48,128 nucleotides of DNA. It comes from Amoeboaphelidium occidentale. Taxonomy: Eukaryota. The notes under the pieces are model-generated. The model searched no databases and was not told where the DNA came from. It saw only the letters and a program-made list of their open reading frames with translations. Location of the stretch: positions 1 through 48,128 of the forward strand of contig JALGPX010000102.1 of the NCBI GenBank assembly GCA_023515795.1, written 5' to 3'. This document shows, piece by piece, positions 6,003 through 44,454 of the stretch. The translations under genes were made by a program, and so were the position numbers. Position 1 is the stretch's first letter; every line of letters begins with the position of its first letter.

Positions 6003-6850
6003 TCAACTAGACTCTTCCTTTCCTTCCTTCAATACCTTTGTCCCTTCTTCTTCCGCAACCATTTCTCGACTACTAGCAATAGGCAAAGTGTCTCCTTCTT
6101 CTGGATTCTGAGTAGTTGTTTCAGTTGTTTGTGGCGTATCAACTGTACCACCTTGTTGTCCTTGCTGCTGTTCAGCTACACCCAATGGAGTAGTAGTAGT
6201 AGTAGTAGTAGGCAACAATTTCCTCCACTTTTCCAACAATGCTGCAGCCCTCTCAACAACATTTGCAGGTTCATTCTCAATCACCATAGAGCTCAATCTC
6301 TTTATAACCTTACCAATCTTTGTATCCTACAAGGATCGAATTAAATACAAACAATTAGAGTTACCCTTAACAAATCAAATGTCACATTGAATCGTTCCAC
6401 TTCCTCCATCAAATCATTCACTTTTCCAAAATCTTCAGTCTTCAAAGTATCACCAAGAAATATGCGCTGCAATTTATGACGCAAACCCAACAGAATTTCA
6501 CTCTCTGATTTTGATAAGGCTTCAGAGTTTAATTTCTTCTTCTTTTTCTTTTTAGAAGTGAAAGCAGCAGCAGATGATGACGCCACAGAAGATTCATCAT
6601 TAAAACTTTCCGCAGCAGCAGCAGCAGCAGCAGAAGTTGCAGTTCTCTTCTTTGAACTTTTAGACTTTTTAGAATATTCAATTTCCCCTTCTTGTGTAAC
6701 AAATCTNGCAAACCCAACAGAATTTCACTCTCTGATTTTGATAAGGCTTCAGAGTTTAATTTCTTCTTCTTTTTCTTTTTAGAAGTGAAAGCAGCAGCAG
6801 CAGCAGCAGCAGATGATGACGCCACAGAAGATTCCTCATTAAAACTTTCC

Positions 6851-6881
<31 letters not shown>

Positions 6882-7469
6882 TTGCAGTTCTCTTCTTTGA
6901 ACTTTTAGACTTTTTAGAATATTCAATTTCCCCTTCTTGTGTAACAAATCTGTCTTCTTCTTGTTCTTCTTGTTCATGCAAATTGTAAACAAAATCCACT
7001 GAATTTGGTGCATCTTGTGCCAGCGCAATAGCTTCCTTTAATCCCTTGACAGGCTTCTTCTTCAACTGACTCAAATGTTCTTCCAATTGAGAGAGAAAAG
7101 GTTTTATGGATTGCCCAGGAACAAAAGCATAATCATTCTGTCCGTAAAACACAACAGGAAAACTACCCAACGGCGCACTTCTCTTTTTCAGATCTCTAGG
7201 CAAGTTGGAAGAATCCAGAATCTACAATAACAACAAGAATAAAATCTCGTTAGTTAAAGCCCAGATACTAATAAAAATACTTTGGCAGGCCAGGAGGGAT
7301 AGCCCTTGAGTTTTGCCCATACCATGTCGCCCTTCTTGTAATTAAACTTCTGCTGCTGCTGCTGCTGTTGTTGTTCAGCCTTTACTCCCTTGCTCTTGTC
7401 ATTAGCAGCAGGTTCAGCTTCAGTTTTCCTTTTTATTTCTGGATTATTCAAAGAAACCACTAGAGACAT
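6003..7469 (-). CDS. PWWP-domain protein with C-terminal TFIIS-N/IBD-like domain (HDGF/LEDGF/Pdp-like); middle part duplicated at an assembly join
   Basis: KGDMVWAKLKGYPSWPAK; introns 7222-7280 and 6327-6364; C-terminal DTKIGKVIKRL...AAALLEKWRKLL; 6481-6706 repeated after N at 6707. Confidence 0.82.
6481..6951. repeat. Overlapping contig ends/alleles differing in (GCA)n tract length, joined by N at 6707
   Basis: 6481-6706 is nearly identical to 6708-6951 apart from poly-Ala codon tract lengths and a SNP. Confidence 0.85.
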
Positions 7470-7550: not shown

Positions 7551-8861
7551 CTATTCGTGCTCGTGAGATTCTGCTGCAAATAAAACATATCTCCACAACC
7601 TCTCTGCCACTTTCAATTTTACTTCAGAATCTAAATCATATAATTGTAATTCTTTTAAATCTTCCTGTAACATTTCCATCCTTTCAGTAGTAAAGATGTA
7701 CTTACTCCATCTCAGTCGACTCTGTTCCATCATCAAATTACTCAACACTACAATCTGCCCTGTAGAATAATATGAAGGTTGTTGTTTTCGTAAGAGTAAA
7801 ACTTCAATTTGCCGCAAGTACTGCAACAACTGTTTAATTCTCTTCCTCTTAAACCTTCTACCACCACTACTTTTTGATGATAATAATAATAAACCATTAA
7901 CAACAACAAAGTAAAAAATCATTAGAACTGGAGCTACTGCTACTAATCCAAAATTCAATTCATTACTCTTCAATATTTTATCCAATGCACTCAGAGCCAA
8001 TTCAACATCGACTTTTGCCTTTTGGATTTGAATTAGAATTAATTGGATTAAATCTCCTGCTAATAAATTCCTTAAAGGATGTTGCATTTCCTGTTCATAT
8101 TGTAAAAGTATTAAAGAGAAGTCTTTATCATTGTTATTAGAAGTAGAATAATTAGAGACCATCCTTCCTAATGACTCTAAATCTACTTCATATGACATCT
8201 GTGAATTATTTATGGAATGTTCATATCTAATTGTTTTATAAATTCCTTTCAAAGGTTCATATATCCAATTTAAAACTAAACTATTTATAGTCTTGTAAGA
8301 TTCTGTTGTTAATCTATAAATAGATTTTGTATTTTTAGACAAAATGTATAATGCACTCAGACTAACAGTTACAGGAATCCATATTCTAAACACAATTGGA
8401 GGCATTCCATACATTCTCTTTAAATTCAAATAATACTGAGATAATTTCTTTAATTGTGAATCTACATCAGTAGAAGTCTGAGGCTGTTGTATTAATAATT
8501 GAAAGGAATCTGTAGAGTCTTCCCTTGTTATTTTAGTTATAATAGAATGTATAATGTCTTTCTCTTGTTGTTCCTTCTTTTGTTTATATTCTTCCAATAT
8601 TCCCAAAGATATGGAAATAATTTTCATTGCATTGTTTAGTTTTTGTATTCTTTCTACTCTATTCTTAATAATACTTCCACCACTTACACCACTTACAATT
8701 CTTCTTGTGTAAAAATAGAAATTAAAAGATACTCTCTTGTATACAGATGATGACTCATAATATTTCAAATGATTATTATTCAAATCAAAATATTCTTTTA
8801 ATAAAGTAGATTTCAGTAAGTCAAGTAGTAGTAGTAGTAGATTGTTGTTGTTGTTGTTCAT
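7551..8861 (-). CDS. NCA2: Nuclear control of ATPase protein 2
   Basis: YEQEMQHPLRNLLAGDLIQLILIQIQKAKVDVELALSALDKILKSNELNFGLVAVAP is the Nca2 family signature. Confidence 0.88.
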   Translation of the reverse strand: MNNNNNNLLLLLLDLLKSTLLKEYFDLNNNHLKYYESSSVYKRVSFNFYFYTRRIVSGVSGGSIIKNRVERIQKLNNAMKIISISLGILEEYKQKKEQQEKDIIHSIITKITREDSTDSFQLLIQQPQTSTDVDSQLKKLSQYYLNLKRMYGMPPIVFRIWIPVTVSLSALYILSKNTKSIYRLTTESYKTINSLVLNWIYEPLKGIYKTIRYEHSINNSQMSYEVDLESLGRMVSNYSTSNNNDKDFSLILLQYEQEMQHPLRNLLAGDLIQLILIQIQKAKVDVELALSALDKILKSNELNFGLVAVAPVLMIFYFVVVNGLLLLSSKSSGGRRFKRKRIKQLLQYLRQIEVLLLRKQQPSYYSTGQIVVLSNLMMEQSRLRWSKYIFTTERMEMLQEDLKELQLYDLDSEVKLKVAERLWRYVLFAAESHEHE

Positions 8862-9362
8862 CTTCTTCTGTTTGATTTTGTAGAAGAAACTGTAATTATT
8901 GTAGTGATCATAGTGCAGCCAATCACGCTCAACCTAAAATTGTAGACAAATTTTTTTTGCATTTTGGGTATTTACCTTTTTAACCTTTAAGGAGATTTAG
9001 AAATGGTTGCACAGAAGAAACAAAAGAAGAGTATTGAGTCTATTAATTCGCGTCTTGCTCTAGTAATGNAAAATATTCTTTTAATAAAGTAGATTTCAGT
9101 AAGTCAAGTAGTAGTAGTAGTAGATTGTTGTTGTTGTTGTTGTTGTTGTTCATCTTCTTCTGTTTGATTTTGTAGAAGAAACTGTAATTATTGTAGTGAT
9201 CATAGTGCAGCCAATCACGCTCAACCTAAAATTGTAGACAAATTTTTTTTTGCATTTTGGGGTTTTTACCATTTTAACCTTTAAGGAGATTTAGAAATGG
9301 TTGCACAGAAGAAACAAAAGAAGAGTATTGAGTCTATTAATTCGCGTCTTGCTCTAGTAATG
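8787..9362. repeat. Allelic/overlap duplication of the NCA2-RPL30 divergent promoter, joined by N at 9069
   Basis: About 8787-9068 is repeated at 9070-9362 with a different (GTT)n length and a few SNPs. Confidence 0.85.
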
Positions 9363-9681
9363 AAATCTGGCAAGTACTATCTAGGGTATCGTTCTACTCT
9401 CCGCAGCATCAGGCAAGGCAAAGGTATTATAGATTCGTAGGGTATACACAACAACTTATTTCTGTTTAGCAAAGTTGATTTTGATTGCTGGTAATTGTCC
9501 TGCTTTGAGAAAGTCTGAATTGGAATACTATGCAATGTTGTCAAAGACTGGTGTACATCACTACTCTGGTAATAATATCGAAATGGGTACGGCTTGTGGA
9601 AAGTACTTTCGTGTTGGGTGCTTGAGTATTGTGGATGCAGGAGACTCTGATTTAATCAAGGCAAGTGAAGAAGCTCAGTAA
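9297..9681 (+). CDS. RPL30: 60S ribosomal protein eL30
   Basis: [26 protein letters not shown], intron 9424-9469, then [27 protein letters not shown]. Confidence 0.97.
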
Positions 9682-9728
9682 ACATTGACAGAAATAAATC
9701 TAAACAGAATGTAATCAACTGGTCTATT

Positions 9729-9760
<32 letters not shown>
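9729..9760. repeat. (TCTA)8 microsatellite
   Basis: Tandem tcta array between the RPL30 and oxidase 3' ends. Confidence 0.95.
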
Positions 9761-9761
9761 C

Positions 9762-11615
9762 CTAATAATCTTTATCCATAACAATTACATCTAATTGCAT
9801 GCCCATTTCCATGTGGTACGGAATGTGGCAGTGGAGAGGCCAGATGCCAGGGTTTGTAGTTTGAAATCGTATGATTGTGAAACCGCATGCATCGTGTGGT
9901 TTCAATTTAGTATTGTAGTAGTTTGGATAGACTGTAGTTGTGTCTCTGAACAACAGTGGTCTAGGTGATCTTCTTATCAACTTTGATATTTCTTTGGGAG
10001 AATAATCACTGTAATTGCCTCTTGCTCCTGCAACCAACTCATGAAAATGATAGCCATGTAAATGCCATGGATGTTGTTCACATTTACCATTCAAAGCAGC
10101 AGTGTTTTGAAGGATAATATCGACAATCTTGTTCTTTTTGAACAGAACAGATAGAAACTGTTTTTCATCTCTTGGAGCGGATAAATAATTATTTTGTCTT
10201 TTGAATTCTTCTAAAAGTGTTCGAGAATCTTGTAACTGTGAAGGTCTGTGCATTGATGCTATGCTGTTGACTGTCCATGTCATAAAAGTAGTATCATTGC
10301 TGCTATTATCCTTAAAGTTTAAAGAAGAAGAAGAAGCATGTAATCGTTCTTGTTTTCCAGTTATGATTATAGTGTAATCTGCTTTGTCATTTGCAGTAAT
10401 GCTTGCTGCAACCGGAATCTTTGGGTTGTTGTAATATGAAGTCTCTCTGGTTCTCAGATCAGACAGTATCCAACCAGGTTTGCTCTTTTTGATAGTTTGC
10501 AGAACAGGCGGATAACCAATTGATGGTTCTACATCTACTAAAGTATTGAAATTTGTATACATTAGTAGAGCATATGTAGTTGGTCCTGCTCTCCATCGAG
10601 GTTCTACGGAAATCTTGTAAAGATTAGGATCTTGATTTGCTTTCAATAGAACAGAATATCTCTGGCCAGAATTAATTTCTAATTCTTCCACATCAAAAGG
10701 TTCAGTGTAATAACCATCAGCTTCAATTATAGTTAGTTTGTGGTTTGGAATACGAAATGAGAAGTAAGTGAGTGTTGAAGCTGCTACCAAACGCAAACGA
10801 TAAGTCTTGCCAGGATCAACGTATAATCTCTCAAAAGAACAATCTGAAGTATCAGATTGTTCTAGAGCGCAGCTACACTTGGCTAAACGTTCCTGTTGGA
10901 GAGAGTCTGATACATTTCCATAATTACCAAAACAATCGAATTTCCCCTTGCCATTCACCAACAAACTTTGTGGATTTCCAGGCCATTTCCATTCCGGTAG
11001 AGGTTTCATTAGATTCTGTCGTGTTATATCGTCTTCTTGATGATACCAGTCAGAAAGTATCAGTGTGCGTTCCTCGTCGTAATGATACGCGTTGTTTGCT
11101 TTAGCTTCGTGCTGCTCTTCCTCATCGCTGACAATTAGAGCACCATAAGCAGTCGTCTGTAAACTGTAATGAGAATGATACCAATACGTTCCTGGTGCAG
11201 CTGTTACTTTGAAGAACATTCTGTACTCTTGCAGTGGACCAATGGGTAATTGCGAGACATAAGGAACACCATCGTACTCTGGTGTGCTCTCCATATGAAA
11301 TCCATGTAGATGAAGCGTAGTACTCTCAGAGTCCATATTGTTTATAATAGTTAAATTGAGCCAAGAATTCCTTCTAATTCTAATCTCTGGACCAGGAAAC
11401 ATGCCATTAATCACTTGGGAACGTCTCTGAAAACCATCAGCACTAATAACACCATAGGAAATGGTCAAATTAACACTCACAACGGGTGCTGCATTAGGTA
11501 ACGGAGAAGAAAGAATAGGGCTTAAGCATAGAGAAAGTAAAAAGAGATAACAAAAGCTGTTCATGATCATGATGCTGACAAAAGAACCCAAAACTAGGAC
11601 TTCTTTCGAGTTCAT
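9762..11615 (-). CDS. Secreted multicopper oxidase (laccase/ascorbate-oxidase-like)
   Basis: Copper ligand motifs HLHG, WYHSH, HPWHLHG, HCHIPYHMEMGM; signal peptide (alternative start MNSFCYL at 11564). Confidence 0.95.
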   Translation of the reverse strand: MNSKEVLVLGSFVSIMIMNSFCYLFLLSLCLSPILSSPLPNAAPVVSVNLTISYGVISADGFQRRSQVINGMFPGPEIRIRRNSWLNLTIINNMDSESTTLHLHGFHMESTPEYDGVPYVSQLPIGPLQEYRMFFKVTAAPGTYWYHSHYSLQTTAYGALIVSDEEEQHEAKANNAYHYDEERTLILSDWYHQEDDITRQNLMKPLPEWKWPGNPQSLLVNGKGKFDCFGNYGNVSDSLQQERLAKCSCALEQSDTSDCSFERLYVDPGKTYRLRLVAASTLTYFSFRIPNHKLTIIEADGYYTEPFDVEELEINSGQRYSVLLKANQDPNLYKISVEPRWRAGPTTYALLMYTNFNTLVDVEPSIGYPPVLQTIKKSKPGWILSDLRTRETSYYNNPKIPVAASITANDKADYTIIITGKQERLHASSSSLNFKDNSSNDTTFMTWTVNSIASMHRPSQLQDSRTLLEEFKRQNNYLSAPRDEKQFLSVLFKKNKIVDIILQNTAALNGKCEQHPWHLHGYHFHELVAGARGNYSDYSPKEISKLIRRSPRPLLFRDTTTVYPNYYNTKLKPHDACGFTIIRFQTTNPGIWPLHCHIPYHMEMGMQLDVIVMDKDY

Positions 11616-11711
11616 TTGAAGATTTGAAATTCCTTAAATTCAGGCGATTTTTAAGCAGTTTCATACCAGGTTGTACTTAAATGTAGAGGTTTCAATAGCT
11701 TTGAATGATAT

Positions 11712-12273
11712 TTATTCGTCAATTAACATTTCCTGCTCACCAGCTTGGAAAAGCATGTCGACCATCTCTTCGTCCTCCTCCAGAGCCTTTAGAGCCCACT
11801 CTTCTTCCGTTGTGCCTTCTGCTTTCGTTTCAGCTAAACCGAAATCGCTAACCCGAACTTGTCCGTTTTCGTCAACCAGCAAGTTTCTTTTTGCGACATC
11901 ATTATGTATGATGCCGATATGATGAAGCTCCTCAAACAAAGCCCTAATCTCATTCTCATATGGCGTGGCATCTTTCCCCTCCAACGACGAACCGCAATCT
12001 TCCAATTCCAGAATCAAATACATTCCATTAGCACAGTAGCAGCCACGAAACTCTGGTGCAATTTTTGTGGTGCTACTGTCCAATAGTCGGTATACTTGGA
12101 GTTCCCGGTCAAAGCGTTCGCGATACCCTTTTTCTTTGTAACTGAATATTTTGTAGACTGACTGCTTTTCAGGAAAGCGAAGACTCTTCCCTTTCATAAT
12201 ATTCCGATGAGATCTGAAAGAACCAGAAACATCAAACTTGATATCACTAAGCAGAATGTCTCCCACCACAAAC
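11712..12273 (-). CDS. Crinkler-type (REase-associated) protein kinase, C-terminal part; 5' end lost in gap
   Basis: YKIF...ELQVY, HNDVAKRN, DFG; aligns by eye with the kinase half of 44455-45858. Confidence 0.8.
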
Positions 12274-12274
12274 N

Positions 12275-13339
12275 AAAGCCACCGAGGAATCATTAAGAGA
12301 ACAAAACAAAGAGTTCAAATACAAAATGTCAAGAAAAAAGAAGAAAGATGTACGGCAAATTTTCAGCTTCTACCCAGGAGGCGCCTAGGCGATTCGATGC
12401 GTCCAATCCACCAGCACCAGAAACGGTACAAAAAAGAACAACTTTGGCTTAAAACTTCCTTTCGATGCACTAGTACAGCCTTTGAAGGTCACATCAGAGT
12501 CTGAGTTTAAGCAAGCAAAATCCATCATGGAAGATGAAAACGATAAAAAAGAATCCAATGAATACAAGAGACAAGTAGAAGTTGTTTGGGAGAAACCGGA
12601 CCAATACTACGTGTGCTTTCCTTACAACAAGACCAATCAAGAAAAAACTAAAGAAAATCATCTTACGGCTGCTGCTCTAGACCCCGGAGTTCGTACTTTT
12701 CAAACCGTGTACGACAGCTTCGGGGACTTCTTTGAGGCTGGTAAAGGTGACATCAGAAGAGTCGAGAGGCTGTGTCTCAAGTTGGATCGTCTGATTTCTA
12801 AAGCCACTGGGGTCAAAACCGGTCGCAAGAATCGGTACAAAAGAAGACGAATGAACGCGGCCATTCAGAGAGCACGACAACGTATTAAGAATTTGGTATC
12901 TGATTTTCATAGAAAACTAGCGCACGATCTCACAAGCCGTTACAATGCCATCTTGATTCCTACTTTTGATGTGAGTAAGATGGTCATTAAGAACAATCGC
13001 AAGATCAATTCGAAACCTGCGAGGAATATGCTGAATTGGTCTCATTACAAGTTTAAACAAAAACTTCTTCAAAAAGCAGAGGAAAATCCAAACTGCGAAG
13101 TTCATGTTGTCACCGAGGAATACACTTCAACAGCATGTGGAATTTGTGGGAGACTCAACCACAAACTAGGAGGAAACAAAAAGTTCAATTGTACACACTG
13201 CGGTTTCAAGTTCGATCGAGATATGAATGCTGCTCGGAATATTATGATCAAGAATTTGGAATCAAGTGGATACAAACTCGTGAGCCTTCGGGCCTGTAGG
13301 CTACTACCAGTCGCAAGACCGCAGAACCGGTACTCTTAG
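12275..13339 (+). pseudogene. Fanzor2 / IS607 TnpB-like RNA-guided nuclease, copy A (5' truncated by gap; in-frame TAG at 12386-12388)
   Basis: RuvC-I ALDPGVRTF, ILIPTF with the catalytic Glu shifted to VTEEYTS, zinc finger CGICG...CTHCG, RuvC-III DRDMNAARNI; upstream FKYKMSRKKKKD is in the same frame across one stop. Confidence 0.92.
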
Positions 13340-13436
13340 GATTATCAGGTTAAAGTAGCAGGTATTTTTTATTTTTTTACTATCTAATTCTGAATGCTGC
13401 GCGTCGGCTTGACAAGCCGGCTTGCGGCAACCTTAG
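13340..13436 (+). ncRNA. Predicted omegaRNA scaffold 3' part / transposon right end, copy A
   Basis: Conserved in 3 copies up to ...CAACCTTAG, then flanks diverge; hairpin TGCTGC-GC-GTCGGCTT GAC AAGCCGGC-TT-GCGGCA; 5' boundary unknown, may overlap the ORF. Confidence 0.75.
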
Positions 13437-13718
13437 TGTAGACAGTCTGTCGATCAGAGGATCGGGGCATTCTGCGCCGAATAAACTCAATAACAGAATT
13501 CTTACGACAGATTTAAAAGTTTATTAGTGGTATGCCTTAAGAGATAATGGTCAGCCTGCGGTGATCAAACGCTGTTCTTGTGTTGCCCTCGCCTGTTTCA
13601 ACAAACCGTTGTTTCATCCCTTCGATTTTAGCCTTTTGCAATTTATCTAGCTAGAAACAATGGCAAATACTCCTGATCTATCAAAGCTAAAGAAGGCTGA
13701 ACTGCAGTGTAATATCAT
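13437..13718 (+). repeat. Duplicate (allelic) copy of 17857-18138: promoter and exon 1 of the SAP-domain gene
   Basis: Identical except tgtag/tgcag at the start; ends at N 13719. Confidence 0.9.
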
Positions 13719-13719
13719 N

Positions 13720-14901
13720 CTACCTCCAATGTTCCAGAGGAAGATCGAGCAAGCCGTCCATTGCTGTACGATGGAAACATTTGTTCAAGCAAAATTAAAG
13801 AAGAAACTATTCACAAACTGGTCTCCTCTATTAAAGCCACCGAGGAATCATTAAAAGCACAAAACAAAGCATTCAAATACAAAATGTCAAGAAAAAAGAA
13901 GAAAGATGTACGGTAAAGCTTCAGCTTCTACTCAGGAGGCGCCTACGCAATACGATGTGTTGAAACTACAAGTACTGTTAGAAATAATGCCGAAAAGAAA
14001 AACATTTGGCCTGAAACTTCCTTTTGATGCACTCAGAAAGCATCTTAAGCTCATATCAGAGTCTGAGTTTCAGCGAGCCAAATCAATCATAGAGAATGAA
14101 AAGAACAAACAAGGATCTGATGAATACAAGAGACAAGTATAAGTTGTTTGGGAGAAACCGGACCAATACTTCTTTTGTTTCCCACACACCAAAGCCAATC
14201 AAGAGAAGACTATAAATGATCATCCAAAGGCTGCTGCATTGGACCCTGGAGTTCGTACGTTTCAAACCGTGTACGACAGCTCCGGGAACTTCTTTGAGGC
14301 TGGTAAAGGTGACATAAGAAGAGTTGAAAGACTGTGTCTCAAGTTGGATCGTCTGATTTCTAAAGCCACTGGGGTCAAAACTTGTCGCAAGAATCGGTAC
14401 AAACGAAGAAGAATGAACGCGGCAATTCAGAGGGCTCGGCAGCGCGTCAAGAACTTGATATCTGATTTTCATGGAAAACTAGCGCATGATTTGACGGGCC
14501 GTTACAATGTCATCTTGATTCCTACTTTTGATGTGAGTAAGATGGTCATTAAAAACAATCGCAAGATCAATTCGAAAACTGCGAGGAATATGCTGAATTG
14601 GTCTCATTACAAGTTCAAACAAAAACTTCTTCAAAAAGCAGAGGAAAATCCAAACTGCGAAGTTCATGTTGTCACCGAGGAATACACTTCAACAGCATGT
14701 GGAATTTGTGGGAGACTCAACCACAAACTAGGAGGAAACAAAAAGTTCAATTGTACACACTGCGGTTTCAAGTTCGATCGAGATATGAATGCTGCTCGGA
14801 ATATTATGATCAAGAATTTGGAATCGAGTGGATACAAACTCGTGAGCCTTAGTGCCTGTAGGCTTCTACCAGTCGCAAGACCGCAGAACCGGTACTCTTA
14901 G
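13720..14901 (+). pseudogene. Fanzor2 copy B (5' truncated; two in-frame TAA and one frameshift)
   Basis: TSNVPEEDRASRPLLYDGNICSSKIKEETIHKLVSSIKATEESL...KDVR*; frameshift near 13995; KRQV* at 14140-14142; RuvC and Zn-finger motifs intact. Confidence 0.92.
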
Positions 14902-14996
14902 GATTATCAGGTTAAAGTATGCACGTAAGTTTTTTTTTACTATCTAATTCTGAATGCTGCGCGTCGGCTTGACAAGCCGGCTTGCGGCAACCTTAG
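14902..14996 (+). ncRNA. Predicted omegaRNA scaffold 3' part / right end, copy B
   Basis: Same hairpin and terminal CAACCTTAG, followed by a different flank (ATGTTACACTTG). Confidence 0.75.
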
Positions 14997-15060
14997 ATGT
15001 TACACTTGATTGTCCATTTCAAGATTATCTATTGATTGTGGTACCAAAAATGCTTCATAT

Positions 15061-16275
15061 TTACCATCCAACATTAATTGGTCTACGTGGACGACGTCTT
15101 AAAGTAGACTGTGGTGGTGATACAGGAGCAGGAGCTGAAACAGGTTCAGAATCAGAATCAGTTGGCTTTTCTTCTTCTTTATCTGCTTGTTGTTCCTTCT
15201 TTTCTGGAGGAGATTGCTTCTTTAAATTAGGTTTTCCATCTTCCAATTCTTCAATAATAGATTCCAACTTTCTCTTTAATCCATCGCTAGCAACTCCTTT
15301 CTTAACAGTTGTTAGTAACTGGACTTGGCATTTTTGATCACATTCTTCTGTTTCCTCTTCCTTCTTCTCGTCCTCTTGGTTGAACTCTTTTTCATTCCTC
15401 TCAATTGGCCTTGACACGGATACGCTGACACTGTTTGTGATGAACCTTCTTCTTTCCAAGAACATTTCACCCTTCAATTCTGGTTCGGTCTTCATAGCTT
15501 TTTTCAAAGAGTACATTAACTCCAAGCATTGTGCTTTCTGTTGCTTCTTGCGGTTATTGTTGGCTCTCTTTTGAAGTCTACGACGAGAAGGCCTAGTATA
15601 ATCATCAACGTCATCGTCTTCAGAGTCGTCCATCCATCTGTTTTCGTCTTCGTAATATTCACGAGATTTACTTTGTTCAGCAGCGCGACTTTCCTTGGCT
15701 AGTTTCGCTTTGGTTGCAGTCATCGATGGAGTACGGCCTTCGTATTCGTCGTCTTCCCAGTCTTCTTCGTCTTCATCATTTGGATTCCAGTCTTCATCAT
15801 CATCATCTTCTTCTTCGTCTTCATTTGGATTCCATTCTTCATCATCATCTTCTTCTTCGTCTTCAGAATCATCATTGCCTTCGGTTTTCCAGTCTTCATC
15901 GTCTTCGTATTCCCATTCGTCGTCTTCGTCGTCTTCAGCGGATTGTGGCGCAACAGACTTTAGCGAAGCAGAGTTATCTACAGATCGCGATTTCTTCCTT
16001 TCCAAAGCATCGGCATAAGAAACCTTTTGTGCAGAAGTTATATCAAGAACGTATTCCTTCTGATTTTTATCGTTATCACCTTCAGGTGCAGCCTTAATTT
16101 TCAATTGGTCACGCTTATCATAAGTCAACTCTTCTTCGCCAACAGGACAAATAACAACAGAGCCAACAGGATAACTCAACTCAGCACCAATAAATTTAAC
16201 CTCCAATTCAGTTTTACCACGCGCGTTAGCAACGGATAAGGCACCAAGAGCGAGAAGCACGACACTGCGCCACAT
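15061..16275 (-). CDS. Secreted acidic low-complexity protein with D/E-rich Trp repeats
   Basis: Signal peptide MWRSVVLLALGALSVANA; repeats such as EEEDDDEEWNPN/EEEDDDDEDWNPN; LQKR possible kexin site. Confidence 0.8.
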   Translation of the reverse strand: MWRSVVLLALGALSVANARGKTELEVKFIGAELSYPVGSVVICPVGEEELTYDKRDQLKIKAAPEGDNDKNQKEYVLDITSAQKVSYADALERKKSRSVDNSASLKSVAPQSAEDDEDDEWEYEDDEDWKTEGNDDSEDEEEDDDEEWNPNEDEEEDDDDEDWNPNDEDEEDWEDDEYEGRTPSMTATKAKLAKESRAAEQSKSREYYEDENRWMDDSEDDDVDDYTRPSRRRLQKRANNNRKKQQKAQCLELMYSLKKAMKTEPELKGEMFLERRRFITNSVSVSVSRPIERNEKEFNQEDEKKEEETEECDQKCQVQLLTTVKKGVASDGLKRKLESIIEELEDGKPNLKKQSPPEKKEQQADKEEEKPTDSDSEPVSAPAPVSPPQSTLRRRPRRPINVGW

Positions 16276-16408
16276 TTTCAATCAGATCACGAGGAAAATT
16301 TGGAAAAGACTTTGAAATACGAAAACTTTGTCAAATTAAATAGATTTTTAAGCAGTTTCATAACAGGTTGTACTTCAATGTAGAGGTTTCAATAGCGTTG
16401 AATGATAT

Positions 16409-16973
16409 TTATTCGTCAATTAACATTTCCTGCTCACCAGCTTGGAAAAGCATGTCGACCATCTCTTCGTCCTCCTCCAGAGCCTTTAGAGCCCACTCTT
16501 CTTCCGTTGTGCCTTCTTTCATCGTTTCAGCTAAACCGAAATCGCAAACCCGAACTTGTCCGTTTTCGTCAACCAGCAAGTTTCTTTTTGCGACATCATT
16601 ATGTATGATGCCGATATGATGAAGCTCCTCAAACAAAGCCCTAATCTCATTCTCATATGGCGTGGCATCTTTCCCCTCTAGAGAGGCACCACAATCTTCC
16701 AATTCCAGAATCAAATACATTCCATTAGCACAGTAGCAGCCACGAAACTCTGGTGCAATTTTTGTGGTGCTACTGTCCAATAGTCGGTATACTTGGAGTT
16801 CCCGGTCAAAGCGTTCGCGATACCCTTTTTCTTTGTAACTGAATATTTTGTAGACTGACTGCTTTTCAGGAAAGCGAAGACTCTTCCCTTTCATAATATT
16901 CCGATGAGATCTGAAAGAACCAGAAACATCAAACTTGATATCACTAAGCAGAATGTCTCCCACCACAAACTTG
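16409..16973 (-). CDS. Crinkler-type protein kinase, second copy (5' lost in gap)
   Basis: Near-identical to 11712-12273 but with substitutions (GAS/GSS, VCDFG/VSDFG, MKEG/KAEG). Confidence 0.8.
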
Positions 16974-16974
16974 N

Positions 16975-17759
16975 AAAGCAACTGGGGTCAAAACCGGTCG
17001 CAAGAATTGGTACAAAAGAAGACGAATGAACGCGGCCATTCAGAGAGCACGACAACGTATTAAGAATTTGGTATCTGATTTTCACGCCAAACTTGCGCAC
17101 GATCTCACAAGCCGTTACAATGTCATCTTGATTCCTACTTTTGATGTGAGTAAGATGGTCATTAAGAACAATCGCAAGATCAATTCGAAACCTGCGAGGA
17201 ATATGCTGAATTGGTCTCATTACAAGTTNGGGTCAAAACTTGTCGCAAGAATCGGTACAAAAGATGACGAATGAACGCGGCCATTCAGAGGGCACGACAA
17301 CGTATTAAGAATTTGGTATCTGATTTTCACGGCAAACTTGCAAATGATCTCACAAGCCGTTACAATGTCATCTTGATTCCTACCTTTGATGTTAGCAAGA
17401 TGGTTATCAAGAACAATCTCAAGATCAATTCGAAAACTGCGAGGAATATGCTGAATTGGTCTCATTACAAGTTTAAACAAAAACTTCTTCAAAAGGCAGA
17501 GGAGACTCCAAACTGTGCAGTCCATGTTGTCACCGAGGAATACACCTCAAAAGCATGTGGAATTTTTGGGAGACTCAACCACAAACTAGGAGGAAACAAA
17601 AAGTTCAATTGTACTCACTGCGGTTTCAAGTTCGATCGAGATATGAATGCTGCTCGGAATATTATGATCAAGAATTTGGAATCAAGTGGATACAAACTCG
17701 TGAGCCTTCGGGCCTGTAGGCTACTACCAGTCGCAAGACCGCAGAACCGGTACTCTTAG
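16975..17759 (+). pseudogene. Fanzor2 fragments (two overlapping contig pieces, 16975-17228 and 17230-17759)
   Basis: MNAAIQRARQRIKNLVSDFH...DRDMNAARNI; the second piece has CGIFG (a Zn ligand lost) and TGA just before MNAA. Confidence 0.88.
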
Positions 17760-17856
17760 GATTATCAGGTTAAAGTAGCAGGTATTTTTTATTTTTTTAC
17801 TATCTAATTCCGAATGCTGCGCGTCGGCTTGACAAGCCGGCTTGCGGCAACCTTAG
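17760..17856 (+). ncRNA. Predicted omegaRNA scaffold 3' part / right end, copy C
   Basis: Same as copy A with one SNP; ends CAACCTTAG. Confidence 0.75.
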
Positions 17857-18079
17857 TGCAGACAGTCTGTCGATCAGAGGATCGGGGCATTCTGCGCCGA
17901 ATAAACTCAATAACAGAATTCTTACGACAGATTTAAAAGTTTATTAGTGGTATGCCTTAAGAGATAATGGTCAGCCTGCGGTGATCAAACGCTGTTCTTG
18001 TGTTGCCCTCGCCTGTTTCAACAAACCGTTGTTTCATCCCTTCGATTTTAGCCTTTTGCAATTTATCTAGCTAGAAACA

Positions 18080-19067
18080 ATGGCAAATACTCCTGATCTA
18101 TCAAAGCTAAAGAAGGCTGAACTGCAGTGTAATATCATTTTGAAATCTTTAGCTTATGTTGCTGATGTGTAGATATCTCTGCTCATTTTGAATTGGCAAC
18201 CGATGGCACCAAGTCAGATTTGGAGTCAAGAATCCTTAATTATGCTGAGACTAAAGGGGGCATTTCTAAATTGAATGTTAAGGATGATAAGGTTGCTCAG
18301 TGGCTGAATGTATCAAAGTCAACTCCTGCTAAAACTGCTGAAAAAGAGGAAGCAACACCTCCAAAAACTTCATCAAGAACTTCAAAAGCAGCAAAGAAGA
18401 GTGCTACTGAAGAAGTCAAGAAGGCTGAGATCGACTGGCCAGCGCTTAAAGAACAAACTCTTGCTTTCTTGTCTGAGCTTCAGCAAAAGCTATCTTCTGT
18501 CTATACAGTAGTTGGTATCTTGTTATTGGCTGAATTCTTCTCTTTGGTCATGTCTCAAGTTGGTTGGCAGCGTCCTTTTTACGTTATCAGTATTAATGAT
18601 GTTTGTTCTTCTGTTTTGGGTGGAACTACCACAAACGCTTGCTTGAACTTACGCTCCATCACTACAAGATTTTTTGGCGGACCAGCTATTAAGTTGAGCT
18701 TGCCGAGTTTTGCTGGTTTCCTGAGCTATTCAGGATTTTGGAGCCCTTTGTTCAACTGGTTGGTCTACTTTGTACTAACCCCTGCTGCTGCTGGTTATTT
18801 TATCAAGATCCGTAATTCGAATGCGTTTATCAATGCAGTAAGTTTACTGAAGTCTGTTTGATCTAACTTTTATTTCAGTATGTGTTTTCCGTCTCAAGAT
18901 TGTTGGTTTTTATTGTTGCCTTGCTAAAGTACTCTGACAATGGCGAATTTTTTATCAGAAGCAGCAACAAGTACCTGAACGTGCTTTTCGACGAAGATCA
19001 TTTGCCTTTAAAGTTGTTTTTAACAACAACAGTGTTCGGTTTATTACTTGCTTTATACGAATCTTAA
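18080..19067 (+). CDS. SAP-domain membrane protein (possibly Gtt3-like)
   Basis: Spliced N-terminus MANTPDLSKLKKAELQYISAHFELATDGTKSDLESRILNY is SAP-like; introns 18129-18172 and 18838-18878; about 4 C-terminal TM segments. Confidence 0.75.
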
Positions 19068-25532: not shown

Positions 25533-25844
25533 AGCCACACTCGCGGGAAATCATCCAAAAACCCCTGTTTGAACGCACACTAAGCCAGTTATTCTAAGAT
25601 ACATGAACGCTAAGTATTTCAGGTGATATTTAGAGTTGAAAAATTTGAAGTCGCGATAACTCAGCTGCGTCTAGTAGCGTGTGATACTGAGTTAAAACAA
25701 TGCTCACCAAGCCCCTGCGACTAGAACTTTGAATATCATAGTACTTCGGAAGACTTCAGACGTGACATACAGCATTAAACTTAATTCGAGCTCCACTGCG
25801 CAAGCACTGTCATAGAATCTATTTTTAGTGAAACAACGATTCAT

Positions 25845-27320
25845 ATGGCATCCAAATCGTTCTCAAAGAAAGCAGGATTTAAATTGGACTTTTCTGGGGG
25901 AAGCTTTAGTTCCGCAGACTCTTCAAAGAGACCGTCCCTCAGTATGACCTCCGATGCTGCTGAGCTTCACTCTGCCGGAAGTTCCAGCGAGAGTTTGCCT
26001 GCGCTCGGACAAGGCGATGATACGACGCCAAAGTCTAGACGTCCAAGACCGAAACCGATTAACTTAGGGCAGATTAGTTTACCTGCTAAACCTCAAGAAT
26101 CATCTAAAGAAGAATCTACTGCTATAAGGCAGGACTCTATCATGGAACTTGTTCAGAATCAGTTGACCGATAAGGATCTGACGACCATTGAAGAACTTGG
26201 TATGAATTCTTTCCAGTTGAAATTTCTGACAAGTATTTAGGGATGGGCAATGGTGGAACAGTCTTCAAAGTTCTGCATAAAGGGACAAATACTGTCATGG
26301 CAAAGAAGGTGATCCATCAGCTGACCGTTAAAGAAGGTCGCGAGATTATTCGGGAGCTACAGGTTCTGAAGAAGTGTAATTCTCCTTATATTGTCTCTTT
26401 CTATGGCGCATATCAGAATGACGGGGAAATTTGCATTTGTATGGAGTACATGGATGTTGGTTCTCTGGAAAAGATTCACAAGATTGCTGGAAAGCTACCG
26501 GAGAACATTCTCACTTTGATCATAATCTCTGTTCTTAGAGGATTAGTTTATTTATATCAACAGCACAAGATAATACACCGTGACATAAAGCCTTCTAACA
26601 TTCTGGTAAACTCAAAGGGAAAGATCAAAATATGTGATTTTGGTGTATCAGGTCAATTAGAGAACAGCATAGCAAACACTTTTGTCGGAACAGGTGCATA
26701 CATGAGTGTAAATTACTTTCTGATTCTGATCTAATTGTTTTTTATAGCCAGAACGAATTCAAGGTTCTAAGTATGCTTCACAAAGTGATACATGGGCTCT
26801 TGGTTTAACTATTTTGGAGCTTACTCTAGGAAGATACCCTTTCCATTCGCAATTGCAAAGTGATGATCCTGAAGATGCACTTCCTCTTTCGGAGTTTGAA
26901 TTGCTGCATCATATTATTAACGATCCTGTCCCAGAGATGCCAAAAGAGTATAGTGATGTCTTTAAATCATTTATACACGACTGCTTAGAAAAGGACCCCG
27001 CAAAGAGGCCTACTCCTGCGTATTTACTAGAGAAACATCCGATCGTCAAACAAGAATCAAAGATAAATTTTGACTTGGTTGGATGGGCACAACAATTCTT
27101 GGAACCTAATCTAGACGAGAAACAGATTCAGAGATGGAGTATGACAGTGTCACGGAAACGGGAAAGTATTAACATGGCAAAAGAAAAGAGAATGTCAAAA
27201 GCAAGAGTGCCGACATCATCTGTCGAGGCACCTCTAAGTTTTTTATCACTGAAAGATACACCAAAGAAAGCAGCCCCAGCTCCGTCCTCTTCATTGGGCA
27301 AGCAATTCTCTTCAAAATAA
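25845..27320 (+). CDS. MAP kinase kinase (Ste7/MEK1-like)
   Basis: Docking site [45 protein letters not shown]; introns 26200-26240 and 26708-26747. Confidence 0.93.
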
Positions 27321-27465
27321 AGTCCATAAAGTATTCTCGAGTTAACACAATTGGTTGACACGGCGACGTTACTACGCGAAGTGGTGTAATGGAACAAGCC
27401 AATCATGATAGATGTGTCCGTTACAGAATGGTTTCAAGCAAAGATGCACAATATTAATCCAGATA

Positions 27466-28830
27466 ATGAACAGCAAGATAACAAGGGGTGTTCCAAAAGT
27501 ATATGTTCCGTCTACTTCAACTATAAAGCCGCAGAGAGCGCCTGTTCGAACAGTATCAGATCCACACTTAAAGGAACCTTCTCCATCAACACCAGAGATG
27601 GCTAAAGGATCCAAGTCTTTGCCAAGCTCGACTTCCACAACACCCAACTCGTCTTTATCAAAGAAAACACGAAAGCTGAGACCGAAACCGGTTCATTTAG
27701 CAGGTTTACAATTAGGCGTGCCTCAGAAGATCGTTGAAACAGCACCAGCGCTTGATATTTCTGAATGTGTCATGAAGATCGACGAAAAAGATGTTGAGAA
27801 ATGCGAAGAATTGGGAATGGGTAGCGGCGGCATAGTTTACTTGGTCAAACATAAACCAACGAAGACTTGGATGGCAAAAAAGATTATTCTGAATGTTCAT
27901 GAGTCGAGGCGTGATAATTTACAAAAAGAGCTAAAGCTGATGAACCAGTGCAGATGCCCTCAAATTGTATCGTTTTATGGGGCCCAGATCACAGAGGGAG
28001 ATTTGCATATTTACATGGAACACATGGATGTCGGCTCACTTGAGAAGATTTGCAAGCTTGCTGGGAAGCTTAATGAAGAGACTTTGATCAAGATATCTGT
28101 TTCTATTCTTCGTGGACTTGGTTATCTTTACGACAAGCACAAGGTTATGCATCGCGACATTAAGCCTTCAAACGTCTTGTTAAATTCCAAAGGTGAAATC
28201 AAGATTTGCGATTTTGGAGAGTCAAGAGAGACTCTGGACTCAGTTGCTGATACCTTTGTTGGAACTGGGTATTACATGTCTCCAGAAAGAATTCAGGGCT
28301 GGAAAAATTACTCCTATAATGCTGATACTTGGTCTCTGGGACTTTCTATTCTTGAACTTGGTCTGGGATTCTACCCATTTAGTCACAGCAATGGTAAAAC
28401 ATGCGAGATGTCACCTCCTTTGAATGAGTTTGAATTGTTGTCTACGATCGTTCATGACAAACCTCATCCGCTATCTGCTAGTGAATATTCTGCTGATTTC
28501 ATCGAATTTATTAATCAATGTCTGATAAAGGATCATAAGAAGAGGCCAAGTCCTAAGGAATTGCTAACTAAGAGTCCAATTGTTGAAATCGAAAAACATC
28601 TGAAGTTGGACATGGCTGCTTGGGCGAAATCGTTCTTAGAGCCTAATCTCAGTCAACAACAACTTAAGCGTTGGAGTGTTACACAAGAATTCAAGAGACA
28701 GTCATTCATTGATAAAAGACAGTCTCGGCCAACACCAAGAAGTTCGTTGGTAGCTTCAAGACCTCCACCAAAACCTGTCACCAGAGTTGACGGGATTTCA
28801 GATATTTTGAAGGGTTTGTACGATAAATGA
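27466..28830 (+). CDS. MAP kinase kinase, intronless tandem paralog
   Basis: [56 protein letters not shown]; start uncertain (27412 or 27466). Confidence 0.92.
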   Translation: MNSKITRGVPKVYVPSTSTIKPQRAPVRTVSDPHLKEPSPSTPEMAKGSKSLPSSTSTTPNSSLSKKTRKLRPKPVHLAGLQLGVPQKIVETAPALDISECVMKIDEKDVEKCEELGMGSGGIVYLVKHKPTKTWMAKKIILNVHESRRDNLQKELKLMNQCRCPQIVSFYGAQITEGDLHIYMEHMDVGSLEKICKLAGKLNEETLIKISVSILRGLGYLYDKHKVMHRDIKPSNVLLNSKGEIKICDFGESRETLDSVADTFVGTGYYMSPERIQGWKNYSYNADTWSLGLSILELGLGFYPFSHSNGKTCEMSPPLNEFELLSTIVHDKPHPLSASEYSADFIEFINQCLIKDHKKRPSPKELLTKSPIVEIEKHLKLDMAAWAKSFLEPNLSQQQLKRWSVTQEFKRQSFIDKRQSRPTPRSSLVASRPPPKPVTRVDGISDILKGLYDK

Positions 28831-33271: not shown

Positions 33272-33456
33272 AAGAATTGGAAAGCTTTATTATTTGAACA
33301 TTTTCTCAATATCACTTCTTTGAAACTAAATTGATTACTTCCCGCGCTTAACTTATTTGAAACCGCGATTCGTGAAACCTTCTCAATATAAAAAGAACTG
33401 TTTGAAAATTATGACTAATTAAATAATACAACAGTTCTTTGTGTGTGCACCAATTG

Positions 33457-33672
33457 GAAACATCTGGTTCTTCCAGATCGCATAAGAATATTATCAAAGG
33501 GACGAGTCTTCGCTTTCCGAAAAGCAATCACTCTACAAAATATTCAGTTTCAAAGACAACGGTTATCGCGAACGCTTTGACTGGGAACTGGAAGCATACC
33601 AACTATTGGACAGTAGCGGTGCAAAAATTTCACCTGAGTTTCGTGGTTGACGAAAAAGGGCAGGTTTTGCTT
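33457..33672 (+). pseudogene. Decayed remnant of the Crinkler-type kinase
   Basis: ETSGSSRSHKNIIKGTSLRFP, frameshift, KQSLYKIFSFKDNGYRERFDWELEAYQLLDSSGAKISPEFRG, then jumps to VDEKGQV; colinear with 11712-12273. Confidence 0.88.
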
Positions 33673-37880: not shown

Positions 37881-38393
37881 TTAAAAGAAAAGAATAGCTG
37901 AGACAAAAACAGAAACGAGAGCCAAACCGTATGCAGTAACACGCGTAGCGTCGCTTGAAGCACCACCATTGACACCACCATTTGCCTTGCCCTTGTTAGC
38001 AGGAGAGCCAGAACCATTAGAGCTGACATTGAAAGTGGAGGAGTAGCTGATCTTCTTCTTGCCTGCATCACTAGTAGTTGTGATTCTCAAGAAGTACTCA
38101 TTACCAGTAACCAAATTATCAGGAACAGTCCATTGTTGGAACGAGTTCTTGTCACCAGGCCAGTTGTATGCAATGTTTGTTACAAACACAGCTGCATTTG
38201 AATTACCATACATCAAGTCAATAACAAGCGACTTTGGGACAAAGTTAGCATCACCTTCAGTAGATGGCTGCCAGTCGATCAGAGGCGTGTCGCCATTCTT
38301 CCATTGCACACCAGTGACTGGTTGAGTAATGAAAAACTGAGCGTAACACGTTTGGATAAGAGCAAAGAAAGCTAAAACGATTAAAGATTTCAT
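37881..38393 (-). CDS. GPI-anchored Kre9/Knh1-N-like (Ser/Thr-rich GPI family) protein
   Basis: Signal peptide MKSLIVLAFFALIQTCYA, ITQP...W...IDW...IDLMYG...WTVP...YFLRI...YSSTF, hydrophobic C-terminus. Confidence 0.82.
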   Translation of the reverse strand: MKSLIVLAFFALIQTCYAQFFITQPVTGVQWKNGDTPLIDWQPSTEGDANFVPKSLVIDLMYGNSNAAVFVTNIAYNWPGDKNSFQQWTVPDNLVTGNEYFLRITTTSDAGKKKISYSSTFNVSSNGSGSPANKGKANGGVNGGASSDATRVTAYGLALVSVFVSAILFF

Positions 38394-38683
38394 GGCGAGT
38401 TGAAGTGAAATTTTTGAAAAAAAGGGGAATAGAAAAGTCTGTGAAACGCAAGCTTCATTTATTGGATCCTGATTGGCGGAGCCTAGACTTTGCAAATCAT
38501 CTTACATCACGCAACCAAAAAAGACCAGTGGCGTGATAGAAAATAGAGCCAGAGATGGAATCAGCTGCACTGCTGAGGAATCTGTGTTCGGTGCCATCGG
38601 TGAAGTCTGGGATTGATTAGGGCCTCTTGGGTTAAGTGTAACAACGGTCTTTTGTGGGCTAACTAATACTGATGATGCGCCTG
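38350..38683 (-). repeat. Inverted allelic copy of 43430-43763 (3' half of the interrupted gene and start of the GPI gene)
   Basis: Reverse complement match with a few SNPs (TDSSAV vs TDFSAV). Confidence 0.9.
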
Positions 38684-38860
38684 AGAAGTAATATCGTTTA
38701 TTTGGTACCAAACTGAAAATGATCCTATTTTATCATTATTGTCATAATGATATAATGAAAATGATCATACTTTTTCAGTAACTTTTTGGTACCAAATAAA
38801 ACGGTTGTAAAATATGCCTCGAAAATGTTCAAATAGATCTTAAACACGCCTTGATATTCC
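38684..38860 (+). mobile_element. Terminus of the long-TIR element, joined to its target flank
   Basis: CGCCTG (reverse complement of the TSD) + AGAAGTAATATCGTTTATTTGGTACCAAACTG..., continuing identically to 43765-43917. Confidence 0.85.
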
Positions 38861-38861
38861 N

Positions 38862-38925
38862 CCGGATTTGAACCGGCGACCTCACGATTTGCAATCGTAC
38901 TTTCTAACCCCTGAAATACCAGGAC
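38862..38925 (-). tRNA. tRNA-Cys(GCA), 3' end truncated by the N gap
   Basis: GTCCTGG TA TTTC-AGGGGTTA-GAAA G TACGA-TTGCAAA-TCGTG AGGTC GCCGG-TTCAAAT-CCGG cloverleaf. Confidence 0.88.
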
Positions 38926-39422
38926 TGCAAACTAAACCAGTTGGACACGACGAAGTAAAATTTTGGGACCTTGAAAAGGAAAGTTTGAGCTACAAGTATT
39001 CCACTAAAATCGAAATATCAATGTTGCTATAAAAAGGAATAATAGCGAAGTTTCATGCAAAGGTTCACCTAAATGTGCAGAATAGTTTTTAGTTGATAAA
39101 TTCGCCATAAGTTCTCTGCTAATGAATGATTGTTAAAATTTTGGCTTGTTTCACTTCCAACATTATCTTGGGGTTTCATGGTATTAAGCTTTGAGGGCAT
39201 GGCAACTGAAACTTAAAATGCTTAAAGCAAGAATTACATCATTTATTCCTAAGTGATCATAATCTTGATTAAACCCCCTTTCCACGAGCTGCTGTGTAAA
39301 GCATCGTAAGCTATGCGCCTGATATGGAAAGGTCTGTCCAAACTCGTATGACGAAATGGCGCTTTTCAGAAACATCCTTCGCTTCGCTCGCTCGCAGTCT
39401 GATTTTCACACAGCGACAAGAG

Positions 39423-41041: not shown

Positions 41042-41095
41042 TGAATTGACACAAATAATAAAAACGCTGTGAAAACTTTTTCTTCTTGTTTGAGC

Positions 41096-42973: not shown

Positions 42974-43075
42974 ATCGGTTAGCATTTCGGAATAAAGTGT
43001 CGTGAAGATTCTTATATCGCGTGTTGGATGTGTGATCAAAAGGAGTGCTGTATCATGGTTCTGCGAATTTTCTAA

Positions 43076-44406: not shown

Positions 44407-44454
44407 GAATATCAAAGATGAAATGAAGGTGAAAGGAACTTTTATTCAATGTCG

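Follow-up and report, generated by a model that had tools for sequence, protein, structure and literature searches.

A multi-copy Fanzor2-type nuclease family beside a paralogous kinase pair in an apparent aphelid: probably a chance neighbourhood

In the window, a stretch of 48,128 nucleotides from Amoeboaphelidium occidentale (contig JALGPX010000102.1), the end of a minus-strand kinase gene is followed twice by the end of a plus-strand nuclease gene of the Fanzor2 type. The earlier note read this as a composite transposon that carries a Crinkler-type kinase as cargo and was inserted twice. Does the kinase travel with the nuclease, or do the two only lie side by side?

Kinase K1 (11646–12273, minus strand) consisted of a 66-bp 3' spacer and the last 186 codons, and Kinase K2 (16343–16973, minus strand) of the 3' spacer and the last 187 codons. 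They were truncated by contig ends at the Ns at 12274 and 16974, respectively. These and the joins at 13719 and 17229 are all single Ns between contigs, and every kinase-to-Fanzor link passes through such a join. The spacing of about 1.35 kb between the right end at 14996 and the kinase boundary at 16343 was as described before.

The segment at 13437–13718 (plus strand) was the same as 17857–18138, with 1 difference in 282 bp. It is a duplicate assembly of the right-hand flank and includes the start of a SAP-domain-like gene, the real continuation of which is at 18139. Because the contig after K1 has the flank of the right-hand site, the join at 13719 is false. Contig 12275–13718 assembles the right-hand locus a second time and is misplaced, and K1 is therefore not joined to the Fanzor ending at 14996. 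With a single N at each join and Copy B having the flank of Copy E, the proposed physical link between kinase and Fanzor was not confirmed; among the read-contig pieces listed, none linked the two.

A second wedged-in contig was seen at 38862–43763. In a patchy scaffold of this kind, single-N joins between repeats can mimic a composite element.

The Fanzor2-type copies and their right end

Three long copies of the nuclease gene were assembled, all on the plus strand, and none of them had an intact ORF. Copy B (12275–13436), on the misplaced contig, lacks its 5' part, has a premature stop at 12386 and is a mosaic of Copies C and E. Copy C (13720–14996), at Site 1, also lacks the 5' part and has a frameshift near 13870–13990 and a stop at 14140. 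Copy E (17230–17856), at Site 2, is a 3' part only, with a stop at 17265 and one zinc-finger Cys lost; it is overlapped, at 93%, by a Fanzor fragment on Contig D (16975–17228, plus strand). Copies C and E differed at 51 of 627 positions.

The Fanzor2 motifs reported earlier were found, namely the DPG of RuvC-I, a Glu located six residues ahead of the first CxxC, a C4 finger and the terminal D. Copies B and C matched the published Fanzor2/pro-Fanzor regular expression, and the pattern was present in 115 of the 120 homologues listed; Copy E is without the 5' part and one Cys. By this motif test, the window nuclease is classed as Fanzor2/pro-Fanzor. The HTH_OrfB_IS605 domain was present in P0002 (pieces 76–92% identical to the window copies), and the N-terminus of the window nuclease falls in a gap. 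The best solved relative was 9b0l, 'TnpB-like protein L79' (E 4e-21; runner-up 2e-13), which we take to be the mimivirus Fanzor2.

The Fanzor is encoded in a eukaryotic genome and not in that of a bacterial contaminant. A contig of single-copy depth (record 6) bridged the right end at 14996 into the acidic, low-complexity 404-aa gene (15061–16275, minus strand) between the two sites. This gene is single copy, with a depth of 111 in X1, the DNA run best matching the window. A quick tree of 50 rows, with long branches, placed the copies with three unnamed proteins, apart from nine named cyanobacterial rows.

The copies share the right end CAACCTTAG at 13436, 14996 and 17856 and have two different right flanks, in agreement with the earlier note. 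AG was the dinucleotide at every right end seen. A terminal hairpin at 13390–13436 (plus strand) ends in CAACCTTAG, and the same is found at 14996 and 17856. Its predicted stability was −23.7 kcal/mol (z −4.15), which none of 200 shuffles equalled. The 150-nt right-end folds were significant for Copy B alone (z −2.9; the others −1.5 and −1.7), and an Rfam search of 11400–18200 gave zero matches. The hairpin is likely the 3' part of a predicted right-end guide-RNA scaffold.

As stated before, TIRs and TSDs were not seen at the three right ends, the true left end lying outside the assembly. No serine recombinase (TnpA) was found among the assembled ORFs of the window, the Fanzor 5' part lying in the gap. 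Among upstream ORFs from viral relatives, a resolvase domain occurred in 1 of the 45 scanned, from 77 picked, in a screen that could miss overlapping TnpA genes. Viral scans gave 0 of 5 for a single Fanzor query and 0 for the exact right-end motif.

The kinase copies and their family

The two kinases share the sharp boundary GATTTTTAAG at 11646 and 16343, and their left flanks are unrelated, as had been observed. K1 (11646–12273) and K2 (16343–16970) were 97.8% identical over 628 bp, with 14 of 628 positions different. K1 gave a Pkinase match (E 2.7e-10) and was 76% identical to P0121. A contig covering both K1 and K2 stopped 421 letters past the cut, within the expected coding region. A remnant of the family is at 33454–33649 (also given as 33463–33649; plus strand), 86.7% identical to K1/K2, with no Fanzor nearby.

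The boundaries do precede the ATGs at 11615 and 16275, by 31 and 68 bp respectively; the signal peptides of these genes were judged by eye. Such distances are ordinary head-to-tail spacing for same-strand genes. The left neighbour of K1 is a multicopper oxidase gene (laccase/ascorbate-oxidase-like; 9762–11615, minus strand) with Pfam Cu-oxidase domains, and the laccase orthologue P0284 (92.5% identity) is on a 7,504-letter Logan contig.

K1 and K2 correspond to the C-terminal half of a protein with a nuclease-like part and a kinase, an architecture also known from the C-termini of Crinklers. As judged from its sequences, the family comprises nuclease-like-plus-kinase proteins of about 460 aa without a Crinkler header. 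The header, or ubiquitin-like translocation domain (PF20147), was detected in none of P0121, P0123 (the N-terminal half of a close relative) and a 467-aa paralogue; the test is one of relatives, the N-termini and nuclease half of K1/K2 being outside the assembled window. P0123, the named N-terminal half of the kinase family, is on a separate 50,276-letter record. PF20147 was present in 1 of 24 family proteins scanned, the distant P0201, and a sign of secretion was not found in the K1/K2 family. The label 'Crinkler-type kinase' held for the C-terminal kinase domain, by Pkinase and fold match.

In a 15-sequence alignment, the domain before the kinase, a candidate restriction-endonuclease fold, had an invariant ExK and conserved E, PD and QxxxY. 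The structure model of the 467-aa paralogue (pLDDT 89.9) gave a predicted mixed alpha/beta topology before the kinase, and its matches to solved folds were kinases (best Z 14.2, rmsd 2.9, 155 aligned). Two fold searches listed only kinases and gave no match for the N-terminal domain, which excludes nothing; the single-domain model had a pLDDT of 33.9. Of 557 candidates in a metagenome scan with K1, 11 were kinase loci, all of them distant. The kinase-family alignment gave 0 of 3 against viral sequences.

Copy numbers, a related strain and the origin of the arrangement

Contig depths were compared in X1 and two other DNA runs, X2 and X3, the last of which is a metagenome and represents a related strain. 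In X1, unique DNA had a depth of 111 and the kinase contig 188 (about two copies, about 1.7 times single-copy). The Fanzor contigs summed to 484 at 13762, 895 at 14853 and 964 at 14924, with the 3' part at about eight times single-copy depth (about 900–960 versus 111), a summed contig depth being different from a copy number. In X2, the depths were 99–110 for unique DNA, 44–49 for the kinase and 124–1461 for the Fanzor bins, and in X3 they were 12–13, 12–22 and 38–243. Additional right-end flanks were on at least four contigs in X1 and at least one in X2 (24 loose-end rows listed). An RNA run (X8) gave short pieces alone.

Because the Fanzor 3' depth in X1 was several times the 188 of the kinase, with further right-end flanks, most Fanzors are without a kinase. 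The equal numbers of kinase and Fanzor that go with a composite were contradicted by depth in all three DNA runs.

In X3, the 993 letters before 14996 on record 20 were on neither Fanzor nor kinase. Record 21 had the 404-aa gene joined to a kinase that is in K2's place but differs from K2 at its 3' end. Record 22 (7,504 letters) had a kinase 3' end, and its next 4,647 letters were without Fanzor among the pieces and joints listed. Its spacing is consistent with a laccase beside the kinase, as matched to the P0284 contig by the equal 7,504 letters alone. The three records had depths of 12.8, 12 and 8.6 and, coming from a metagenome, may derive from different strains. In the related strain, kinases appear to be at both sites already, with the Fanzor absent at Site 1 (14996). 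An empty allele without both parts was not what this strain had; it lacked the Fanzor at 14996 and kept the kinase by the 404-aa gene. Kinase sites also differ between the strains.

These results bear on a true composite, in which a Fanzor2 element with GATTTTTAAG as its left end spreads the kinase as standing cargo. Sharp common boundaries at both sides and the IS607-like absence of TIRs and TSDs agree with it, as does AG at the left junction of K2 and at every right end seen. On the other hand, Fanzor DNA exceeded kinase DNA several-fold in the three runs, and both the related strain and position 33463 had a kinase with no Fanzor beside it. The left junction of K1 has CG, contrary to the rule that the two ends of a copy share one crossover dinucleotide. 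End motifs were not shared (5 shared 6-mers, matched by 1,038 of 2,000 shuffles, and not a single 7- or 8-mer), the assembled part is without a recombinase, and the kinase-family profile gave 0 of 2,077 ORFs at 80 viral loci of related nucleases. The copy imbalance has already largely refuted this reading, and we consider it very unlikely. Of the composite claimed before, the part labels (a Fanzor2 nuclease and a Crinkler-type C-terminal kinase) stood, and the single cargo-carrying element inserted twice was not supported, in view of the copy imbalance, the related-strain kinases without Fanzor, a left AG in only one of two copies and the lack of a serine recombinase in the assembled part.

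The strain-to-strain variation of the kinase sites would also fit kinases that ride a different element, with Fanzors nested later. An example is the integrase transposon at 44322–48128, in which a full-length 467-aa kinase paralogue (31–33% identical) and a frameshifted integrase-like gene lie between 88-bp terminal inverted repeats. Against this, nothing at the K1/K2 boundary resembles these repeats, no integrase was seen by K1 or K2, and the Pfam match of the integrase-like gene is weak (E 0.08–0.11). We regard such an origin as highly improbable.

Another route is a one-off co-copying in this strain, in which a Fanzor lands by the kinase and the block is copied once across the 404-aa gene. 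This would proceed by recombination or break repair between Fanzor copies, or by the recombinase using the true right end and a cryptic left site in the kinase 3' spacer. Order and orientation repeat at both places, K1 and K2 are nearly identical, and in X1 a contig of the Copy C type (13902–14223) had a depth of 196, near the kinase's 188. The mosaic in Copy B is expected from conversion or chimeric assembly, and the related-strain match begins at the terminal G of 14996, as both left boundaries begin with G. The kinases diverged by 2% and the Fanzors by 8–10%, a gap that was insignificant within 150–400 bp of the ends (p 0.09–1.0) and significant when measured over 620 bp (p ≤ 0.0013). Because the argument from divergence breaks down close to the anchored ends and Copy B is mosaic, we give it less weight.

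What speaks against co-copying is the kinase apparently at both sites already in the related strain. After a simple insertion the resident kinase should still be present, but X1 showed a single contig, of depth 188, at 16554–16662. The two-copy kinase contig ends within the gene, and the differences between Copies C and E (51 of 627 positions) outnumber those between the kinases (14 of 628). We consider co-copying possible but unlikely. Somewhat less likely still is the claim that Fanzor2 is, in this strain, a vehicle copying the adjacent Crinkler-type nuclease-kinase gene, through the right end and a cryptic left site or through Fanzor-copy repair. If this vehicle reading is true, an RNA-guided-nuclease element would amplify or reshuffle a toxin-like Crinkler-type module in an algal parasite.

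The reading that we favour, with somewhat better than even confidence, is that Fanzor2 elements inserted independently into a kinase pair that is older and undergoes gene conversion. The kinases were likely there before the transposon and likely do not travel inside the Fanzor. A multi-copy, IS607-derived family of the Fanzor2 type would have inserted alone where two paralogous nuclease-like-plus-kinase genes already sat, and scaffold joins across repeats would have given the false look of a composite inserted twice. The Fanzor may move by IS607-style recombination at the AG dinucleotide, with a serine recombinase encoded in the unassembled 5' part or supplied in trans. Recent local gene conversion may account for the 98% identity of K1 and K2, as may re-duplication from the laccase-side copy; the 'left end' would therefore be the edge of a tract and not a transposon end. 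At most one kinase-Fanzor neighbourhood (K2, a Fanzor and the SAP-like gene) would be real, and read pairs from it may also have been assigned to the near-identical K1. What was taken for a 'toxin-carrying transposon' probably reflects a chance neighbourhood, with its doubled look from the assembly.

Comparison with known systems

What remains is a modest result, namely a Fanzor2 family, present in multiple copies and variable between strains, whose right end is AG and whose host appears to be an aphelid, the best named relative being Amoeboaphelidium occidentale at 76%. It offers a new host for Fanzor2, a candidate guide-RNA scaffold and a candidate target motif, predicted to be TAG-like. Our literature search found no report of Fanzor in aphelids and no match for the pairing of an RNA-guided-nuclease element with a Crinkler-type module.

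Fanzor2/pro-Fanzor nucleases belong to IS607-type elements (Bao and Jurka 2013, PMC3627910; Yoon et al. 2023, PMC10711439). The window copies are like them in motifs, in showing no TIRs or TSDs at the right ends, in a fixed terminal dinucleotide and in a predicted structured right end. The dinucleotide is AG, whereas that of the usual IS607-type Fanzor2 is GG. Unlike those systems, the three long copies here are broken, and the assembly includes neither TnpA nor the true left end.

Crinkler (CRN/CR) proteins with REase-plus-kinase C-termini, such as the CRN8 type, are reviewed in PMC5289972, citing Zhang et al. 2016. The full-length relatives of K1/K2 are similar to these in that, ahead of the kinase, they have a domain carrying the E...PD...ExK and QxxxY motifs and predicted to be mixed alpha/beta. 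They differ in that the close relatives are without the Crinkler header and a sign of secretion.

Crinkler-like AACRNL genes have been copied by neighbouring DNA transposons, hAT/mariner, in fish (PMC12957317), and CRNs are in helitron-rich regions of Phytophthora (PMC5289972). As in these cases, a Crinkler-type gene is duplicated beside transposon copies in the window. There, TIRs or helitron arrays flank the genes, whereas in the window a Fanzor2 lies next to the gene and co-movement is putative.

Joins and boundaries of the kinase and Fanzor copies

Two near-identical kinase gene 3' parts, K1 (11646-12273) and K2 (16343-16973), both on the minus strand, started with GATTTTTAAG and had unrelated left flanks. 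Three TnpB-like Fanzor2-type copies (B, C and E) ended at CAACCTTAG, at 13436, 14996 and 17856, respectively. The earlier note had described these sharp boundaries and named the parts, and in both respects it was confirmed. It had further proposed a composite Fanzor2 transposon that carried the kinase and had inserted twice; this was not supported by the contig layout, the sequencing depths or a related strain.

The window contained eight single Ns. Contig A (9070-12273) carried a laccase-like gene and K1, contig B (12275-13718) carried Fanzor copy B and a 282-bp right flank, and contig C (13720-16973) carried a Fanzor, a 404-aa gene and K2, both kinases being cut at contig ends. Contig D (16975-17228) was followed by contig E (from 17230), with a Fanzor 3' part and a SAP-like gene. 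The 282-bp flank of contig B differed from the contig E flank at one position. This indicated that contig B was a second assembly of the right-hand locus, that the join at 13719 broke a gene whose true continuation starts at 18139, and that the only partner joined to K1 was a misplaced contig. Among the pieces listed, no contig bridged a kinase-Fanzor join.

Contig ends also overlapped across single Ns at 6481-6951 and 8787-9365 (92-95% identity), so single Ns in the window often represent overlapping rather than gapped joins. The contig at 38862-43763 was wedged between overlapping contig ends (38708-38860 equals 43765-43917), and its own end was an inverted repeat of 38350-38800 (99.3%); it may be either a scaffolding slip similar to contig B or a real inverted duplication.

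The putative left junction dinucleotide was AG once and CG once, and the left and right ends shared motifs no more than expected by chance. K1 and K2 differed at 14 of 628 positions. Over the 400 bp next to the ends, kinase and Fanzor divergence did not differ significantly; with Fanzor copy B also a mosaic, the 8-10% divergence of the Fanzors was weak evidence for independent insertion.

Copy imbalance and the related strain

Four of the listed 18 runs supplied contigs, which were compared with contig C only; the run X1 contained 83% of the sampled words and may be the source of the window itself. In X1 the depth was 111 for unique DNA and 188 for the single kinase contig, or about two copies, both in the window. 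Summed Fanzor contig depth was 484 at 13762, 895 at 14853 and 964 at 14924; summed depth does not equal copy number, and the direction of the imbalance agreed in all three DNA runs (X1, X2 and X3). At least four X1 contigs, among the 24 loose ends listed, left the Fanzor right end into other flanks, and a kinase remnant at 33463 had no Fanzor. The two parts were unequal in abundance, contrary to what a standing cargo element would predict, and we consider such an element unlikely. Among 80 viral loci of related nucleases, none of 2,077 ORFs matched the kinase-family profile.

We interpreted the region as one in which Fanzor2 copies probably inserted independently, at AG sites, beside two older kinase paralogues. 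The copies would have entered separately; the kinases would have been homogenised recently, K2 acquiring the laccase-side 3' end, which would produce the sharp apparent left end. At most, K2 would be a true Fanzor neighbour, the scaffolder having copied the same link to K1. Against independent insertion, one copy-C-type contig had a depth of 196, resembling that of the kinase. A single local co-copying of kinase and Fanzor in this strain is the next, less likely alternative. In X2, the kinase types had depths of 44 and 5 against 99-110 for unique DNA, indicating that kinase sites differ between strains.

X3, which represents a related strain, is a metagenome, and its records 20, 21 and 22 had unequal depths (12.8, 12 and 8.6) and may come from different strains. 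Record 20 had 993 letters matching nothing in the compared stretch, followed by 14996-15779, which indicated that the Fanzor was missing at that site. In record 21 the 404-aa gene was connected to a kinase that had 60 differences in 436 and ended, on its 3' side, in 190 dissimilar letters. In record 22 (7,504 letters), letters 2457-2857 held the kinase 3' end, and the pieces listed downstream of it included neither a Fanzor piece nor a joint. The orthologue of the laccase (P0284, 92.5%) comes from a Logan contig whose length is likewise exactly 7,504 letters, and its gene is small enough for the 2,456 letters preceding the kinase piece. If these two are the same contig, a match made by equal size alone, both kinase sites would be older than the Fanzor of copy C.

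Identity of the nuclease and the kinase

The Fanzor signature published as a regular expression (PMC10711439; Fanzor2 background also in PMC3627910) was matched by copies B and C and by 115 of 120 listed homologues. The closest solved structure was 9b0l (E 4e-21), and the closest named relative was from Amoeboaphelidium occidentale (76%), which makes an aphelid the likely host. A quick 50-row tree placed the window copies with three unnamed proteins, apart from the nine named cyanobacterial rows. The same group held the full-length relatives P0122 (628 aa) and P0004 (533 aa); P0122 was about 50% identical to the window Fanzor and had a long N-terminal part absent from the window. None of the three long copies was intact: a stop codon interrupted B at 12386, C at 14140 and E at 17265; C was also frameshifted, and E had lost one zinc-finger cysteine.

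The final 47 nt of the right end formed a predicted hairpin stabler than 200 of 200 shuffles. It matched no Rfam family and is the likely guide-RNA scaffold. Every right end seen terminated in AG. IS607-type elements insert through exchange at a fixed dinucleotide (PMC10711439, PMC6188088), and we infer such a mechanism here, TnpA and the left end falling in the gaps.

K1 and the C-terminal half of its close relative P0121 shared 76% identity. Family members were proteins of roughly 450-470 aa in which E, PD, ExK and QxxxY motifs preceded the kinase; this arrangement is reported in about one sixth of Crinkler C-termini (PMC5289972, citing Zhang et al. 2016). An in-window paralogue had a confident predicted structure (pLDDT 89.9), and two fold searches listed only kinases, so the putative nuclease fold rests on the motifs. 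The Crinkler header was absent from P0121, P0123 and the paralogue; a scan of 24 family proteins detected it in a single one. The protein likely acts like a Crinkler toxin module, with no sign of secretion. Also bearing on whether kinase and Fanzor travel together, the two-copy kinase contig stopped 421 letters beyond the cut, still within the expected gene, and a named N-terminal half of the family (P0123) was on a separate record.

Other elements and known systems

Tandem MAP-kinase-kinase-like genes, labelled by translation and source name, lay at 25785-27320 and 27412-28830. A near-palindromic 132-bp element (43299-43430; partial second copy 38683-38800) is likely a miniature inverted-repeat transposon.

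The stretch 44322-48128, which extends beyond the window end, is likely a TIR DNA transposon, with 88-bp inverted repeats at 44322-44409 and 48041-48128 (97.7%). Between them, on the minus strand, lay the intact 467-aa paralogue (44455-45858), a nuclease-like-plus-kinase ORF, and a frameshifted integrase-like gene (46683-47728) with a DDE pattern and a Pfam rve match of only E 0.08-0.11. Carriage of K1 and K2 by another transposon is also unlikely, and we rank it last.

The literature search found no paper pairing Fanzor with Crinkler or with Amoeboaphelidium in the library searched; Fanzor catalogues in supplementary tables may already include the window family. Crinkler-like AACRNL genes copied by neighbouring hAT/mariner DNA transposons are described in fish (PMC12957317). 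As a possible mobile Crinkler-type module, the element at 44322-48128 makes a clearer case than the K1/K2-Fanzor pair.
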